Source: a virus | Taxonomy: Duplodnaviria; Heunggongvirae; Uroviricota; Caudoviricetes | IMG/VR virus record: IMGVR_UViG_3300045988_004821 | DNA: 64,000 nt | Strand: one strand, 5' to 3' | In this document: positions 6,512 through 64,000 of the stretch, one piece after another | Position numbering within the stretch: the first letter of the stretch is position 1 | How the letters are laid out: each line of letters starts with the position of its first letter | Program-made: the position numbers and the translations under genes | Notes under the pieces: model-generated | What the model saw: the letters and a program-made list of their open reading frames with translations, nothing else | Database searches by the model: none | Told to the model about the DNA's origin: nothing

Positions 6512-14527
<8,016 letters not shown>

Positions 14528-29689: not shown

Positions 29690-29749
29690 TTTTACTCCCT
29701 CTAAAATCATTAACCTCATACATTACTGCAAAAAATTATAAAAAGCAAG

Positions 29750-29778
29750 TTGACAATGTACTTGACAAGGTGTTAATC
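29750..29778 (+). promoter_or_regulatory. possible sigma70-like promoter in divergent AT-rich intergenic region
   Basis: TTGACA with weak -10 (TTAATC/TAATCT); second TTGACAAGG copy at 29763. Confidence 0.25.
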
Positions 29779-29886
29779 TTTGCGAAGTGGGTTTTTACTT
29801 AAAAGGTTACTTAACAGTTTAACTATACAGATACTTTAAAACTCTTAAAAGATTATTTAATAGCTTTTAAAAAGCTTTAAAGTATA

Positions 29887-29901
29887 ACGTATAGAATACG
29901 T
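29887..29901. promoter_or_regulatory. palindrome ACGTAT-AGA-ATACGT in divergent AT-rich intergenic region (operator-like)
   Basis: Perfect 6-bp inverted repeat with 3-bp spacer between DNA polymerase (-) and first + strand gene. Confidence 0.3.
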
Positions 29902-29946
29902 TAAGATAAAAGATTAAAACTTAATAGTTACTTAAAAGAGGCTTAC

Positions 29947-48090: not shown

Positions 48091-48124
48091 GGGAACTGTA
48101 AAGGTTCCCTTTTTTTTTTTTTTT
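48091..48124 (+). terminator. terminator with unusually long T tract
   Basis: GGGAAC-TGTAAAG-GTTCCC followed by about 15 consecutive T. Confidence 0.55.
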
Positions 48125-59442: not shown

Positions 59443-60222
59443 ATGGGTATTGTAAAAGTTGTAAAAGGTAACTTACTGGCTGCCTTCAAAAACACAGATA
59501 TTGAGTTAATTGCTCATGGTTGCAACTGTCGTAACCTCATGGGCGCTGGAATCGCTCAAAAAATTGCTAAGATTTTCCCAAAAGCTGAAGAAGCTGACCG
59601 GAAATTCCATAAAAAGTTTGGCTACAGTGCTCATGATATCGGATACCAGATGGTTGGTGAGGTGTCACATGCTCGAACGGAGTATGGTTACATTTTTAAC
59701 CTATATACACAGTTGGATGTTGGGAAGTGTGCATCATACCGATACTTAGTGGAGTCACTAGAAAAACTCCGTAAATTTTGCTGGCTGCACAACATTCGTA
59801 AGATTGGTTTACCTATGATTGGGGCAGGTATCGGTGGTTTAGATGCACAAGCTGTGAAAAGCCTCATTAATAGTGTTATGTATAACGTTGATGTGTACCT
59901 CTACGTCTATGATGAAACAATGGCAAGTGTAGTTACCCCTAAGTATGCTACCTCAGCACCACAATTCTATGATGGTGTCGTGCTAAGTGACGGGAAGACT
60001 AATCAAGTTACCCTCTATCAACTTGTTGAAGGTAAGGTTGAGGTTAGTTACCCTCTGGTTAGTGAGATGGGTATGTGCAACAGTGAAATGTTCCCAGTTG
60101 ACCCGTTTGGAAGATATGAAGGTGTATTCTTTGATAACTACCCAGCAGCGTACATCTACACAACAAATCAGGATGAAGTTCACTACTTGCTGTATTCTAA
60201 AAAGTTCAAATTCATAAGCTGA
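59443..60222 (+). CDS. TARG1/DarG-like macrodomain protein (putative ADP-ribose hydrolase) with C-terminal extension
   Basis: AHGCNCRNLMGAGIA and GLPMIGAGIGGLD match TARG1 blocks HCISEDCRMGAGIA and SMPRIGCGLDRL; about 95 extra C-terminal residues. Confidence 0.65.
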   Translation: MGIVKVVKGNLLAAFKNTDIELIAHGCNCRNLMGAGIAQKIAKIFPKAEEADRKFHKKFGYSAHDIGYQMVGEVSHARTEYGYIFNLYTQLDVGKCASYRYLVESLEKLRKFCWLHNIRKIGLPMIGAGIGGLDAQAVKSLINSVMYNVDVYLYVYDETMASVVTPKYATSAPQFYDGVVLSDGKTNQVTLYQLVEGKVEVSYPLVSEMGMCNSEMFPVDPFGRYEGVFFDNYPAAYIYTTNQDEVHYLLYSKKFKFIS

Positions 60223-60255
60223 TTAGTACTTTACAGTATCTACAAATCATCTAAG

Positions 60256-60301
60256 AAGGCTGCCTAACCCATTGAAAAATTTAAGGTAAGGCGGCCTTTT
60301 T
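60256..60301 (+). terminator. long-loop hairpin with T-run after macrodomain gene (possible terminator)
   Basis: AAGGCTGCCT ... AGGCGGCCTT stem (one wobble), 23-nt loop, then TTTTT. Confidence 0.35.
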
Positions 60302-60440
60302 CATTTTCAATTTGTGCAGGTATCTGTAGGGGTCTGTACAGATATCCCAAAAAATCTCATCGCCGGATAGAAAAATCATTTTCAAAACGTGCAGACCCCG
60401 CTCAGGTCGGGCAAGAAAAATCATTTTAGAATCGTGCAGG
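60301..60440 (+). repeat. three 20-bp direct repeats TCATTTT(C/A)NA(A/T)N(T/C)GTGCAG
   Basis: Copies at about 60301-60320, 60376-60395, 60421-60440 in a 490-bp ORF-free region. Confidence 0.5.
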
Positions 60441-60466
60441 TAGGTTTTTATAGAGAGCCAGACCAA

Positions 60467-60497
60467 CCCCTCTCCCCCTCTTACTCCCCCTCTCCCC
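60467..60497. repeat. homopyrimidine mirror repeat (potential H-DNA/triplex)
   Basis: CCCCTCTCCCCCTC-TTA-CTCCCCCTCTCCCC: 14-nt arms with perfect mirror symmetry. Confidence 0.55.
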
Positions 60498-60618
60498 AAA
60501 AGTCAAGAGAAAAATTTGTAGCGGATTGAAAAATAATTATTGATTTGTGTTCTGTTTTGTGGTAGTCGTGTGCGCCCGTTTCATTACAGTTTTTCCAAAA
60601 ATATTTTTAAAATTTTTC

Positions 60619-60647
60619 TTGACTCTTTGAACGTGGTTATCTAGTAT
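60619..60647 (+). promoter_or_regulatory. strong sigma70-like promoter of cassette A1
   Basis: TTGACT-17 bp-TAGTAT with AT-rich UP-like tract upstream; hairpin and RBS follow. Confidence 0.55.
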
Positions 60648-60650
60648 TTG

Positions 60651-60710
60651 CATCAACGGGGAGGGAATGACCTTCCCCACTAAATAAAGTCCTAAACTGG
60701 AGATTCAAAA
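60651..60710 (+). promoter_or_regulatory. cassette A1: 5' leader hairpin plus conserved RBS block
   Basis: ATCAACGGGGAGGGAATGACCTTCCCCACTAAATAAAGTCCTAAACTGGAGATTCAAAA then ATG. Confidence 0.5.
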
Positions 60711-61091
60711 ATGGCATATCGTGCACCTAAATTCATCAACAAAGACAACTTTCGCAACGCACTGGAGAAGTCACTTGATGAGAATTTTAAAGGTAATGTT
60801 ATTGTTGTTCACTCGTTTAATTTTAAGTATGATATCAACGGGAATAAAATCAACCATTACACGGCAACAATGTTAGATGGCACGCTTTCAAGTGAAAAAA
60901 CCATTTTACATGCACTTGCTGGACGTGGTAAAAACCTGATAAAATGCGATAAGAGACGTTATCAGGGTGGCGCATATGGTTATGATGATGCTGTTTATCA
61001 TCTTGAAAATATGGGCTATAAAGTAGAAAAAGCTGGGGTATCGCAAATCATCGGTAGTGATGGCTATGTAACAATCTTCAAAATTAACTGA
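60711..61091 (+). CDS. hypothetical early protein (cassette gene 1)
   Basis: 126-aa ORF behind promoter/hairpin/RBS cassette A1. Confidence 0.4.
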   Translation: MAYRAPKFINKDNFRNALEKSLDENFKGNVIVVHSFNFKYDINGNKINHYTATMLDGTLSSEKTILHALAGRGKNLIKCDKRRYQGGAYGYDDAVYHLENMGYKVEKAGVSQIIGSDGYVTIFKIN

Positions 61092-61180
61092 TAAAGTACT
61101 TTACAAGGGGCTTATAGTTCGATAAAGTAAGCCCCAGATAAAGAGCTTTACCACTAAATCCTAAATTGGAGAACTTAAAA
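61092..61180 (+). promoter_or_regulatory. cassette B1: intergenic hairpin plus conserved leader/RBS
   Basis: AGTACTTTACA, hairpin GGGGCTTA-N13-TAAGCCCC (61107-61135), AGATAAAGAGCTTTACCACTAAATCCTAAATTGGAGAACTTAAAA then ATG. Confidence 0.5.
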
Positions 61181-61190
61181 ATGGCTATTA
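61092..61190 (+). repeat. 99-bp perfect direct repeat, copy 1 (partner 63114-63212)
   Basis: Identical by eye from TAAAGTACTTTACAAGGGG through ATGGCTATTA. Confidence 0.6.
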
Positions 61191-61438
61191 TCAAAAACGT
61201 TGTAATTACCGCAAAGACTCGTGATGACGCTCGTATCATGGCTAAAAAGTTATGCGGGAAAGTGGTTGACAACGGAAAACAATCTGCTGTAAGGTGGGGC
61301 GTGAAGGTTGATAAACAACTAACCTTAAAACGCAGTTCAAACAACCTTTTTAAAGGTGTAAAATCACTCGGTAAAGTGAACGTCTTTACCAAAAAAGGCT
61401 ATAAAATGCACTTATCATTAACTGGCAATTTAATCTGA
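61181..61438 (+). CDS. hypothetical early protein (cassette gene 2)
   Basis: ATG start preferred over track TTG at 61166; preceded by cassette B1. Confidence 0.4.
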   Translation: MAIIKNVVITAKTRDDARIMAKKLCGKVVDNGKQSAVRWGVKVDKQLTLKRSSNNLFKGVKSLGKVNVFTKKGYKMHLSLTGNLI

Positions 61439-61526
61439 TAAAGTACTTTACAGGGGGCTTAAAAGCTGATACCTTAAGCCCCAGATAAAGAGCTTTACCA
61501 CTAAATCCTAAACTGGAGATTCAAAA
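61439..61526 (+). promoter_or_regulatory. cassette B2
   Basis: Hairpin GGGGCTTA-N13-TAAGCCCC (about 61454-61482) with different loop, then conserved leader and RBS. Confidence 0.5.
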
Positions 61527-62039
61527 ATGAAAACTGTAGACGCTACCTTTGAAGTTGTAAAAGAAAAATTCACCATTATTTATGAAGCTGTCAATTGCTT
61601 TGAAGCAAGCCATAATCTTGATAATTGGGAGTTTACAGACGACCATCAAGGCGGTGTGACTGTTAAAAATCCTAACTATCAGCATAATGAATTTAAATAT
61701 GCAATTCCTTTGCATTACAGCCTTAAACAGCTTTCTAGTGACTATGCAAAACAAGGCCGGGGGAATCCATCAAAAGAGGCTTACGCCAGCTTACAGAAAG
61801 AACTAGAAAGAGATTTAGAGGCTTCAGAGTATAACCTTGCCGCGAAAGTTGTGGATGCAAACGGTAGCACGGTTTTAGAAAGTTTTTATCTTGGTTATGC
61901 TTTCGATTGGTGCTATCGTGACGGCGATGATTTAGAGGATAGACTAAAAGAAGAGGTGAACAACGCAGACGCAGAATCTGAAGTATTAGAACGTTTGGAA
62001 TCGTTGAAAGACTCAGTGATGAATATCTTTAAGAACTAA
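61527..62039 (+). CDS. hypothetical acidic early protein (cassette gene 3)
   Basis: 170 aa, Asp/Glu-rich; preceded by cassette B2. Confidence 0.4.
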   Translation: MKTVDATFEVVKEKFTIIYEAVNCFEASHNLDNWEFTDDHQGGVTVKNPNYQHNEFKYAIPLHYSLKQLSSDYAKQGRGNPSKEAYASLQKELERDLEASEYNLAAKVVDANGSTVLESFYLGYAFDWCYRDGDDLEDRLKEEVNNADAESEVLERLESLKDSVMNIFKN

Positions 62040-62130
62040 ATAGATTTCTTTACACGGGGCTAACAAGCGGATATGATAGCCCCAGATAAAGAGATTTATC
62101 AAATTAACCCTTAAACTAGGAGATTCAAAA
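62040..62130 (+). promoter_or_regulatory. cassette B3 (diverged copy)
   Basis: Hairpin GGGGCTA-N14-TAGCCCC (about 62056-62083) with compensatory stem change, then AGATAAAGAG...GGAGATTCAAAA then ATG. Confidence 0.45.
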
Positions 62131-62427
62131 ATGAAATTATCAAATAAAGTTAGGGAAAACCTTAGCAAATTACTCAATAAAATTGATTTTATCGAGACAT
62201 CAAGAAATAGTCATGATGTTATGGAATGGTTACACGGCAAAATAAAAGGCCGTCGTGTAGTGATTTGCTTATGGAATAGTTGCAGGGAGTATAAAAATCC
62301 TGTATTGCAAATTAATGTTTATGATGATACTTGTAAAAGTCCTGTTAAGTCTGAAAGTGATTTACTAGATTCTTATGAGATAACTGTAAATGGCAAAGTG
62401 TCACGCAAAGAGGAAGCACTATGTTAA
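62131..62427 (+). CDS. hypothetical early protein (cassette gene 4)
   Basis: 98-aa ORF preceded by cassette B3. Confidence 0.4.
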   Translation: MKLSNKVRENLSKLLNKIDFIETSRNSHDVMEWLHGKIKGRRVVICLWNSCREYKNPVLQINVYDDTCKSPVKSESDLLDSYEITVNGKVSRKEEALC

Positions 62428-62753
62428 TGATGGGTATCACTGCAATCATTGCTATTATGGCGCTATATAAGGCGTACAGCGCCTACAATCTGGCAAGTAA
62501 GGCAATCACGCAACAGGTCAATAATAGCCTTGTAATGAGTTTTCTGGAGCGTTTAAGTGATGAACAAATAAAACGGTTAGAAATGAGCTTCAGATTTCAA
62601 TCAAAAACTTATCAAATCAGCGACATTTTCAAAGATAATTTTCAGCTTGTCGATGATTATAACTCTCTGATAAATGCTTTAAATATCAGTGACTTAAAAG
62701 ACTATTACACTGTAATTGTCCAAGAACTGAACAAACGAAAAAATTTCTCTTGA
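62421..62753 (+). CDS. hypothetical membrane protein (cassette gene 5)
   Basis: N-terminal hydrophobic helix MGITAIIAIMALY; start overlaps upstream gene. Confidence 0.35.
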   Translation: MLMMGITAIIAIMALYKAYSAYNLASKAITQQVNNSLVMSFLERLSDEQIKRLEMSFRFQSKTYQISDIFKDNFQLVDDYNSLINALNISDLKDYYTVIVQELNKRKNFS

Positions 62754-62778
62754 TTTTAGTTTTAAAAACAAGTAAATT
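62750..62778 (+). promoter_or_regulatory. sigma70-like promoter of cassette A2
   Basis: TTGATT-17 bp-TAAATT followed by ATCAACGGGGAGG hairpin as in A1/A3. Confidence 0.45.
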
Positions 62779-62783
62779 ACTAA

Positions 62784-62843
62784 TCAACGGGGAGGGAATG
62801 GCCTTCCCCACTAAGTAAAGTCCTTAAACTAGGAGATTCTAAA
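62784..62843 (+). promoter_or_regulatory. cassette A2: 5' leader hairpin plus conserved RBS block
   Basis: Near-identical to A1 (GGGGAGGGAATGGCCTTCCCC ... CTAGGAGATTCTAAA then ATG). Confidence 0.5.
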
Positions 62844-63116
62844 ATGTACACTACTAACAACGGTCGCACCTTAAACGTAACCCTACGCCACTATGTGAAC
62901 GGTGTAATGCACTTCGAGGATTTACAAGCTGAACAGCACATTTTGGATTGGCAACTTGCAGGATTCCAAAAAACTGCTACAGGATACGGGAAAAAGATTC
63001 CAACCAGTTGGAAAGTATACTACGAAGGACGTTTACGCAGAATTTATCAAGATGTGCAAAGCAATAGCGCATCGAGTTACATTATAGTAAAAGGCAAAAA
63101 ACTGCATTTAATGTAA
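62844..63116 (+). CDS. hypothetical early protein (cassette gene 6)
   Basis: 90-aa ORF behind promoter/hairpin cassette A2. Confidence 0.4.
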   Translation: MYTTNNGRTLNVTLRHYVNGVMHFEDLQAEQHILDWQLAGFQKTATGYGKKIPTSWKVYYEGRLRRIYQDVQSNSASSYIIVKGKKLHLM

Positions 63117-63202
63117 AGTACTTTACAAGGGGCTTATAGTTCGATAAAGTAAGCCCCAGATAAAGAGCTTTACCACTAAATCCTAAATTGGAGAACTTAA
63201 AA
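63114..63202 (+). promoter_or_regulatory. cassette B4 (identical to B1)
   Basis: Hairpin about 63129-63157; sequence identical to B1 through the first codons. Confidence 0.5.
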
Positions 63203-63212
63203 ATGGCTATTA
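63114..63212 (+). repeat. 99-bp perfect direct repeat, copy 2 (partner 61092-61190)
   Basis: Same sequence as copy 1; spans stop codon, hairpin, leader and first codons. Confidence 0.6.
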
Positions 63213-63607
63213 ATAACCGTGAATTATCAATTTTAAAAGCACGTTTGACCGTTAATCGAATCAACATTATGACATCATCAGCGCCTGATGAGACATTGCA
63301 CAACATTATCGGAAAGATTCAAAGCGTTATTTTAGACGTTGAAAACGTAAAAAGCTCATTGGCTGACGTTGCAGCAGGTATCACACTAGATGGCGCACAA
63401 TATGAAATGTCCGACATGTTAGGCAAATCAAAGGTAATGAATAAAGAGCTTGATTTAAAGATGTTCCGATTTGCTGTTAAAGTATGGCTATCCGTCGAGT
63501 ATGACGCTAATTTTGCAATCGCTGATTTCTTTGCCACTTGGTTACAACGTAATTTGACAAATCACGATTTCCGTGATGTCTGCGATGCAATTTATGCAGA
63601 ACTCTAA
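63203..63607 (+). CDS. hypothetical early protein (cassette gene 7)
   Basis: ATG start preferred over track TTG at 63188; preceded by cassette B4. Confidence 0.4.
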   Translation: MAINNRELSILKARLTVNRINIMTSSAPDETLHNIIGKIQSVILDVENVKSSLADVAAGITLDGAQYEMSDMLGKSKVMNKELDLKMFRFAVKVWLSVEYDANFAIADFFATWLQRNLTNHDFRDVCDAIYAEL

Positions 63608-63616
63608 AAAATTTTG

Positions 63617-63645
63617 TTGACACTGGTTTTTAGATAGATTAAATT
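63617..63645 (+). promoter_or_regulatory. sigma70-like promoter of cassette A3
   Basis: TTGACA-17 bp-TAAATT followed by ATCAACGGGGAGG hairpin. Confidence 0.5.
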
Positions 63646-63649
63646 ACAC

Positions 63650-63708
63650 ATCAACGGGGAGGAAATGACCTCCCCCACTAAATAAAGTCCTAAACTGGAG
63701 ATTCAAAA
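63650..63708 (+). promoter_or_regulatory. cassette A3: 5' leader hairpin plus conserved RBS block
   Basis: GGGGAGG-AAATGA-CCTCCCC perfect 7-bp stem, then ACTAAATAAAGTCCTAAACTGGAGATTCAAAA then ATG. Confidence 0.5.
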
Positions 63709-63912
63709 ATGGCTATTATTAATGGTTTAACCATTGAAACTACACACATCAAAGATATCAAAGTTGGCGATATAGTCCTTTCCCACGGCGTAGAAAAAAC
63801 TGTCACTGCAAAGGATATTAAAGAGGATTCTTTCATGGGTAGGACTCTCTTCGGTGATTCTTATTGCTTAGGCTATCTTGCAGTTTTAAAAGTTGTCAAA
63901 AATAACAAATAA
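63709..63912 (+). CDS. hypothetical early protein (cassette gene 8)
   Basis: 67-aa ORF behind promoter/hairpin cassette A3. Confidence 0.4.
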   Translation: MAIINGLTIETTHIKDIKVGDIVLSHGVEKTVTAKDIKEDSFMGRTLFGDSYCLGYLAVLKVVKNNK

Positions 63913-63997
63913 AGTACTTTACAGGGGGCTTATAAGTCTGTACAGTAAGCCCCAGATAAAGAGCTTTACCACTAAATCCTAAACTGGAGATTCAAAA
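63913..63997 (+). promoter_or_regulatory. cassette B5
   Basis: Hairpin GGGGCTTA-N13-TAAGCCCC about 63925-63953, then conserved leader and RBS. Confidence 0.5.
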
Positions 63998-64000
63998 ATG
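63998..64000 (+). CDS. start codon of a further cassette gene truncated by the window end
   Basis: ATG at the same position relative to cassette B5 as in other cassette genes. Confidence 0.3.

Follow-up and report, generated by a model that had tools for sequence, protein, structure and literature searches.

A subfamily-wide direct-repeat array in the control region ahead of the terminal small genes of a Felixounavirus

Iteron-type replication origins, including those of lambda, plasmids and P1-type replicons, carry same-orientation repeats of ~20–30 bp with A/T tracts near an AT-rich stretch and promoters. Same-strand sites also make up the operator arrays bound by C and Cox of P2 and by p4 of phi29, where they lie 10–22 bp apart between divergent promoters, overlap those promoters and serve as an early/late switch. 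Here, we describe a control region of ~490 bp (positions 60223–60710) in a 64,000-nucleotide stretch of viral DNA (IMG/VR record IMGVR_UViG_3300045988_004821, referred to throughout as the window), which contains three same-strand copies of a ~27-bp direct repeat and lies between a macro-domain gene and the small genes of a terminal array that runs toward the genome end. The window derives from a Felixounavirus (Felix O1-like, Ounavirinae), with the 2 kb around the region matching such phages at up to 98% identity and the Salmonella phages BPS17L1 and Si3 and the Escherichia phage ECML-1 as its closest relatives. The direct repeats are a previously undescribed, subfamily-wide cis-element that is not mentioned in the genome papers of Felix O1, wV8, VpaE1 and UAB_Phi87, and we tentatively read them as tandem protein-binding sites at a transcription boundary.

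The locus resembles iteron origins in presenting several same-strand repeats at one place, but the spacing of the array is wide, irregular and variable between genera, no initiator gene is apparent nearby and no skew signal accompanies it. The likeness to the P2 and phi29 operators, several same-strand sites, is a lead only, as the sites here lie 37–77 bp apart and 60–300 bp from promoters. Two further systems bear comparison. Promoter-early stem-loop (PeSL) elements of T4-type phages combine a sigma-70-like promoter, an AT-rich upstream tract and a polyG/polyC stem-loop next to small unknown genes (PMC2839356, PMC4122927). The right-hand 100 bp of the present region is built alike, and dispersed copies precede small genes whose content varies among relatives; however, these phages belong to another subfamily, sequence homology is not claimed, and the direct-repeat array and C-rich tract lie outside any PeSL. 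The injection-stop (iss) region of T5 spans 1.2–1.7 kb and comprises inverted repeats, palindromes and eight DnaA boxes (bioRxiv 10.1101/866236). Like it, the present region is a repeat-filled noncoding block that is better conserved than its neighbors, lies beside small genes with host-type promoters and is separated from the terminal repeat by ~5–8% of the genome length; unlike it, the region is 0.5 kb long and lacks DnaA boxes in this phage.

A conserved direct-repeat array

The sequence TCATTTTCAAnnnGTGCAG occurs at 60301–60319, 60376–60394 and 60421–60439 with zero, zero and two mismatches, respectively, and no other match with fewer than two mismatches was found in the 64 kb. An earlier reading of the window, made without database searches (hereafter the sequence-only reading), had recognized these three copies while placing each end one base too far. 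The true repeat unit is ~27 bp long and consists of an A5 or T5 tract, TCATTT, seven nucleotides and GTGCAG(G/A)T. All three units are on the plus strand. Unit 1 (60296–60322, CTTTT-TCATTT-TCAATTT-GTGCAG-GTA) shares its T tract with the T-run of a terminator and is orthologous to copy 1 in all relatives. Unit 2 (60371–60397) corresponds to copy 3 of four-copy relatives and looks like a fusion junction, and unit 3 (60416–60442) corresponds to their copy 4, with TCATTTT and GTGCAGGT invariant in 22 genomes. Between units 1 and 2, a small duplicated TCTGTAG/TCTGTAC element (60323–60341) contains a palindrome, CTGTACAG; at this position, two copies of TCTGTAGAGA are seen in relatives.

Conservation was assessed in an intergenic alignment of 22 distinct genomes of Felixounavirus, Mooglevirus and Suspvirus, to which the statements on 22 genomes refer. 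Across the 83 units in this set, TCATTT and GTGCAG are invariant and the gap between them is fixed at 7 nt; an A5 or T5 tract precedes every unit, its type alternating from copy to copy. Most genomes carry four copies, and the extra upstream unit (the second copy) has been lost in the lineage of the window, which includes Si3 and finno, and in BPSELC-1, these losses being independent. Conservation is selective: in the 17 genomes with four copies, 44 of the 48 core columns (92%) are invariant versus 34 of 80 spacer columns (42%; Fisher p = 9e-9), a statistic that is partly circular given that the core was defined from the repeats, with an Erwinia phage serving as the independent check. In this phage, vEam_PM_6 (Kolesnikvirus), the macro protein is only 36% identical and the intergenic region is left unaligned by blastn. 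Directly after the macro gene, vEam_PM_6 nonetheless has four copies of W5-TCATTTY-N6/7-GTGCATAG spaced 37/37/39 bp, followed by a C-rich tract and then by an AT-rich tract with a TTGACT-17-TATATT promoter. Repeat spacing is 75/45 bp in the window and 73–77/39–41/45 bp in Felixounavirus, Mooglevirus and Suspvirus, individual genomes having spacings such as 73/39/45 and 75/41/45 bp.

The motif W5-TCATTT-N7-GTGCAG is thus present in three to four copies, on a single strand, in Felixounavirus, Mooglevirus, Suspvirus and Kolesnikvirus. The sequence-only reading had proposed conservation of the repeats among relatives as a test, and they are kept in four Ounavirinae genera. Because this persistence accompanies divergence of the spacers and flanking genes, a cis-acting function of the array is likely on sequence grounds. 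The array is confined to this one locus: the exact motif was found only as this cluster, in ~50 Ounavirinae loci (some 14–34 kb long), with no further copies in the window or in the part of a relative's genome beyond it (composite genome). Pattern scans of IMG/VR and metagenomes retrieved Felix-like contigs only, plus unrelated tandem or coding repeats, and neither the motif nor homologous sequence was found in E. coli genomes and plasmids. The phages carrying the array infect Erwinia, Citrobacter, Shigella, Salmonella and E. coli.

Several candidate identities for the motif were considered and set aside. A general promoter motif was rejected, as the repeat occurs nowhere else in the genome. 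Scans with the DnaA and IHF consensus sequences gave no site over the repeats in this phage; specifically, TTWTNCACA with at most one mismatch has no match overlapping them, and the vEam_PM_6 copies reach 8/9. Sites for sigma-54, CRP, Fur and type I restriction enzymes, compared by eye only, did not fit the repeats.

The sequence-only reading had called the region free of open reading frames (ORFs). Four short ORFs of 34–72 aa do exist in the gap (72 aa, minus strand; 46 aa, plus; 47 aa, minus; 34 aa, plus), although none keeps its frame in relatives. The 72-aa minus-strand ORF (60281–60499) stays open across the three repeats, since both spacings here (75 and 45) are divisible by three; with spacings in relatives that include 73, 41, 43 and 37, the repeats fall in different frames and the "proteins" stop at different places. 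ORFs are annotated here in the records of wV8, Sf14, Mordin, Pr103Blw and mistaenkt. Hypothetical proteins lie over the array in several records (in our numbering of retrieved loci, L004 1199–1435, L005 1248–1436, L009 2215–2373, L002 2402–2566 and L034 932–1240), and the minus-strand ones form phrog_15689, which matches the window ORF only at E = 0.005. As repeat spacing is not kept in multiples of three and frames are not conserved between genera, these annotations, including the phrog_15689 family, are probably spurious gene calls. A protein-coding role was therefore rejected for the 72-aa ORF, phrog_15689 and the annotated ORFs alike.

An alternative that dispenses with function altogether would derive the repeats by duplication from the terminator 3′ flank and explain the lasting similarity of the block by a role as homologous "linker" in modular recombination. 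The units do resemble that flank (GGGCTTTTTCATTT versus AGAGCTTTTTCATTT), one copy has been removed twice by unequal crossing-over, and PeSL-type cassettes are known recombination sites (PMC2839356). A junction between macro-gene alleles also lies inside the repeat at 60376: the macro gene and left intergenic part (59443–60375) constitute a rare allele, and homology to the common type restarts at that position, inside the repeat, which marks a mosaic junction. Set against this, vEam_PM_6 retains the core motif with its 7-nt gap while the rest of the region does not align there, and recombination alone would not conserve core columns over spacer columns so selectively (92% versus 42%). We consider it improbable that the array has no dedicated function.

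Transcription signals on both sides of the array

The array begins within an intrinsic terminator (60253–60301, plus strand), a long GC-rich hairpin followed by T5 with a predicted energy of −23.3 kcal/mol (z = −5.2 versus shuffles). Its 3′ arm, AGGTAAGG, shows no variation among the 22 aligned genomes of three genera, the consensus fold of the alignment scores z = −14 versus column-shuffled alignments, and the wV8 and ASO1A records annotate the hairpin as a terminator. The sequence-only reading was right to see a terminator here, which ends in T5, but not in describing its loop as long, since the stem is long and almost fully paired. The minus strand of the hairpin also folds (−18.2 kcal/mol), with no U-run after it on that strand.

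On the other side of the array lies a sigma-70-type promoter, TTGACT-17-TAGTAT (60619–60647, plus strand), for the first gene of the small-gene array. It is annotated as a promoter in ASO1A, and TTGAC and TA.TATTTgCATCA are conserved in the 22 genomes. The promoter is preceded by a conserved AT-rich, UP-like tract (60588–60618, plus strand) with 90% A+T over 30 nt from 60588, tied for the maximum of the window; both the tract and the promoter had been noted in the sequence-only reading and are present as described. Downstream, a G/C stem-loop in the 5′ leader, GGGGAGGG...CCTTCCCC (60658–60713, plus strand; −18.4 kcal/mol), leads into a Shine–Dalgarno (SD) sequence, GGAG (60699–60702), and the ATG; wV8 annotates this feature as DR_6. 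Promoter, leader stem-loop and SD together are a member of a dispersed cassette family, and the small-gene array (60608–64000) is punctuated by three type A and four type B cassettes, each made up of promoter, G/C stem-loop and SD. Type A cassettes are located at 60608–60713, 62739–62846 and 63606–63711, and type B cassettes at 61069–61190, 61416–61537, 63091–63212 and 63887–64000. The proposal that a regulatory region sits at this module boundary holds, with both terminator and promoter cassette conserved, though the "replication block" said to lie upstream is loose wording: by the annotation of Si3, the upstream rightward operon encodes ribonucleotide reductases (nrd), NAMPT, rIIA/rIIB, polynucleotide kinase (pnk), spanins and, last, the macro protein.

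Two further promoter-like modules are arranged back to back between the array and this cassette. The leftward module (60478–60521, minus strand) contains an AT-rich tract, a −35 element TTGACT (60506–60501), a 17-nt spacer and TAAGAG (60483–60478). Its −35/AT-rich part is the most conserved block of the region, with AAAAGTCAA invariant and AAAAGTCAAgagAAAAATtTGTAG, an inverted copy of the UP/−35 region of the downstream promoter, nearly so in the 22 genomes. The −10 element is TAAGAG, lacking the final T, in the window, Felix O1, Mooglevirus and Suspvirus, and TAGCCT in an alternative allele; the leftward promoter of vEam_PM_6 reads TTGACG-18-TATACT. The rightward module (60529–60568, plus strand) is composed of AAAAATAATT, TTGATT (60540–60545), a 17-nt spacer and TAGTCG (60563–60568). 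In the 22 genomes AAAAATAATT is invariant and TTGA conserved, while the −10 is always TAnnnG in relatives and thus poor for sigma-70. From these elements we infer a conserved divergent promoter pair that would fire, if weakly in the allele of the window.

Taken at face value, this arrangement suggests how the array might work. The strong terminator would close the operon of nrd, rIIA/B, pnk, spanin and macro genes, and ~320 bp beyond it the strong sigma-70 promoter would restart transcription into the small-gene array. The three to four same-strand sites of ~27 bp in between could then be tandem sites for one sequence-specific DNA-binding protein, most likely phage-encoded, because E. coli genomes and plasmids lack the motif, whereas phages of five hosts keep it. 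Once bound, the protein would act as a roadblock or insulator that stops leftward transcripts of the divergent promoter as well as read-through from the upstream operon, and might in addition set when the early array is expressed. The −35/AT-rich modules adjoining the array face both directions and are conserved, which speaks for this reading.

A number of observations weigh against such binding sites, in addition to the partial circularity of the conservation statistic. The sole annotated candidate for a site-specific DNA-binder in the genome is an HTH_3 (Cro/CI-type) protein of 99 aa whose gene lies elsewhere, within the replication block on the minus strand (Si3 gp083, L059 32953–33252; window equivalent at ~21.8–22.1 kb). 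The repeats are found only at the first small-array promoter and the other cassettes have none, so a regulator acting here could not alone switch the array off. The distance from array to promoter is ~67 bp in the window versus ~174 bp in vEam_PM_6. Given the poor leftward −10 (TAAGAG), there is perhaps little leftward transcription to block. Finally, a literature search found no transcript, footprint or mutant data and no transcriptome for the genus, and the text of the Bas63 essentiality screen that was accessible has nothing on this region. With these points included, tandem protein-binding sites at a transcription boundary are the reading we tentatively favor, short of an even chance.

The same promoter pair invites a different interpretation, in which the leftward promoter would produce a noncoding RNA (ncRNA) of ~250 nt running through the G-rich tract and the repeat antisense to the terminator hairpin. 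On this view the motif would work at the RNA level, either as a sponge for a protein or by antisense pairing with the 3′ end of the macro mRNA. This interpretation draws on the leftward −35 and AT-rich tract being kept in four genera, on a −10 that is acceptable in one form, the TAGCCT of the alternative allele, and good in another, the TATACT of vEam_PM_6, and on the minus-strand fold of the hairpin. It is weakened by the incomplete −10 (TAAGAG without the final T) of the window, Felix O1, Mooglevirus and Suspvirus, by the missing minus-strand U-run and by the absence of an Rfam match. Structure prediction points the same way: RNAalifold with column-shuffle controls on both strands supported the terminator and a 3-bp leader pairing only, and the minus strand showed no conserved secondary structure or covariation (z −1.6 to +0.5). 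A known RNA family was rejected, as the best Rfam match (E = 0.14) covers the terminator hairpin only and none falls below E = 0.1. We accordingly give a leftward ncRNA little credence.

C-rich tract, candidate origins and genome ends

Next to the array, overlapping the leftward module, lies the homopyrimidine mirror repeat CCCCTCTCCCCCTC-TTA-CTCCCCCTCTCCCC (60467–60497), which varies between lineages. As claimed in the sequence-only reading, it is exact in sequence, with arms of 14 nt around a 3-nt center. It contains 22 C in 31 nt, in a genome with 18% C, and its minus strand reads G4-N3-G5-N7-G5-N3-G4. This is the only canonical G-quadruplex/i-motif pattern, defined as four runs of three or more G (or C) separated by loops of 1–7 nt, in the 64 kb on either strand; any such pattern arose in 13 of 200 shuffles. 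Its G4Hunter score of −2.36 compares with next extremes of −1.40 and +1.28 in the window. The longest pyrimidine run of the window lies elsewhere, at 48105–48124 (TTCCC followed by a T15 homopolymer run).

These features, namely the perfect 14+3+14 mirror symmetry of a homopyrimidine tract, its extremely unusual base composition and a fit to the canonical G-quadruplex pattern on the complementary strand, are those of tracts known to form H-DNA, G-quadruplexes or i-motifs, and could suggest that a non-B DNA switch under supercoiling is the functional core of the region. The sequence-only reading had put weight on the capacity for H-DNA. A G-run or C-run tract moreover sits beside the array in every lineage, with G4Hunter scores of −1.7 to −2.6 where it keeps the same strand; in the alternative allele, which has it on the opposite strand, the scores are +1.1 to +1.6. 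C-rich tracts after the array are also seen in Mooglevirus, Suspvirus and Kolesnikvirus. In contrast to such tracts, though, the mirror repeat is not conserved as a structure-forming element across relatives. In a second allele, the 55 bp between the last repeat and AAAAGTCAA are unrelated sequence that is G-rich on the plus strand, so that the G-rich strand flips between alleles. Among GenBank relatives, ~139 records have the unrelated segment versus ~65 with the C tract, and most Felixounavirus records belong to the former, contrary to the conservation in relatives that had been proposed as a check. Felix O1, wV8 and Mooglevirus have imperfect mirror symmetry and vEam_PM_6 has none; the symmetry is perfect only in a subset of genomes. 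Because ~139 relatives carry the unrelated segment, H-DNA is not a required function. The mirror repeat is, judged from these comparisons, a dispensable, lineage-variable accessory and the least important feature of the region, and a non-B switch as its core is very improbable.

The C tract may be hard to sequence or assemble, as two GenBank assemblies have artifacts exactly there. The Andreotti record (MN850610, L001 3082–3104) ends with a snap-back assembly artifact just before the C-rich tract, and VpaE1_ev035 (LR699048, L179 205–222) carries a leftover Tn5 mosaic end, CTGTCTCTAGAGACAG, together with a 14-nt duplication inside it. The C tract of that record looks expanded, an impression that was rejected as a product of the Tn5 artifact.

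The main rival to tandem protein-binding sites is an origin of DNA replication, in which the repeats would be iterons for a phage initiator, the G-run/C-run and AT blocks would unwind or form an R-loop, and the sigma-70 promoters would activate or prime a T7-like replisome. The sequence-only reading had called the region origin-like, and part of that description stands. Three to four same-strand repeats with A/T tracts occur at a single genome locus, the region holds the (tied) 30-nt A+T maximum of the window, promoter modules nearby point both ways, and the noncoding block is better conserved than the flanking genes. The replisome genes (primase/helicase, Pol A and exonuclease) are T7-like as well. 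What does not fit is the position of the genome-scale signals. The cumulative GC-skew minimum is at ~29.8–30 kb and the curve climbs monotonically through 60 kb with no inflection at 60.3 kb, although gene orientation confounds GC skew in phages. The 100 bp with the highest A+T content (82%) likewise fall within 29720–29946, where the DNA polymerase gene (minus strand) and rightward replication genes diverge; this intergenic region has two CTTAAAAGRTTAYTTAAYAG repeats of its own, a 27-nt near-palindrome and the GC-skew minimum. This interval is a better conventional origin candidate than the repeat region.

The array itself also departs from an iteron layout. Its spacing is irregular and differs between genera (37–39, 39–45 and 73–77 bp), whereas classical iteron arrays are regular, and two separate losses of one copy have done no obvious harm. 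No Rep-, O- or DnaA-like product was seen among the neighbors or in the Si3 annotations, only some of the proteins having been profiled, and this phage's region contains no DnaA boxes. The AT-rich tract is set ~150 bp apart from the array and also serves as the UP element of a promoter. On balance we regard an origin at the array as unlikely, if clearly less so than the ncRNA and nonfunctional alternatives.

A genome terminus or packaging site was rejected for this region, as the 581-bp terminal repeat of Pr103Blw has no match to it. An apparent hint of a terminus, the start of the Andreotti record inside the region with an annotated "repeat_region", was traced to the snap-back artifact. Direct terminal repeats have been determined as 581 bp in Pr103Blw by PhageTerm (PMC8303462) and as 608 bp in UAB_Phi87 by Bal31 mapping (PMC4837284). 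The ~580-bp terminal repeat (L008 1–581 and L009 8342–8922 in Pr103Blw; Felix O1 homolog at 12771–13339) was recovered at 80–95% identity in 243 records. It lies 4.4–6.4 kb downstream of the control region in Felix O1, HY02 and Pr103Blw and is present at two places in 27 records. It falls outside the window within a ~1.8-kb noncoding gap, where two terminal transcription units converge.

This geometry allows one further analogy. The array and the G-run tract could be a stop or pause site for DNA entry, or an anchor to the membrane or a host factor, in a two-step delivery like that of the T5 iss and first-step transfer (FST) DNA; the segment transferred first would then be the terminal ~5–8% of the genome, with its small genes and host-type promoters. 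To our knowledge, no report describes two-step DNA entry in Felix O1-like phages, which are myoviruses. As the defining DnaA boxes are missing here, we hold both the stop site and the first-transferred segment to be remote prospects. A less exotic version would be a new type of origin in phages combining a T7-like replisome with the RNA polymerase of the host.

Neighboring genes and significance

The genes on either side of the control region are less stable than the array between them. Upstream, the macro-domain gene (59443–60222, plus strand; 259 aa; Pfam PF01661, E = 1.2e-6) is the last gene of the long rightward operon, and its product is a rare allele: only Si3, finno and a few other phages have a protein 96–100% identical to it, and its identity to the Felix O1/wV8 type is ~41%. 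Downstream, the first gene of the terminal small-gene array (60711–61091, plus strand; 126 aa) belongs to phrog_4495 (E = 1.7e-72), a family with no known function attached, and relatives hold a different gene at its position.

Felix O1-like phages are widely used for typing and detecting Salmonella and in therapy against it. Nevertheless, no map exists of their replication origin, of their host-takeover region or of how they control transcription over time (PMC3185647), and the genome papers of Felix O1, wV8, VpaE1 and UAB_Phi87 state that temporal transcription control is unknown. Phage engineers would do better to place no payloads in this seemingly "empty" gap until its role is known. For the biology of the subfamily, the array supplies a short, single-locus cis-element conserved throughout, with a 27-bp bait, defined bases, natural three-copy variants and two tract alleles.

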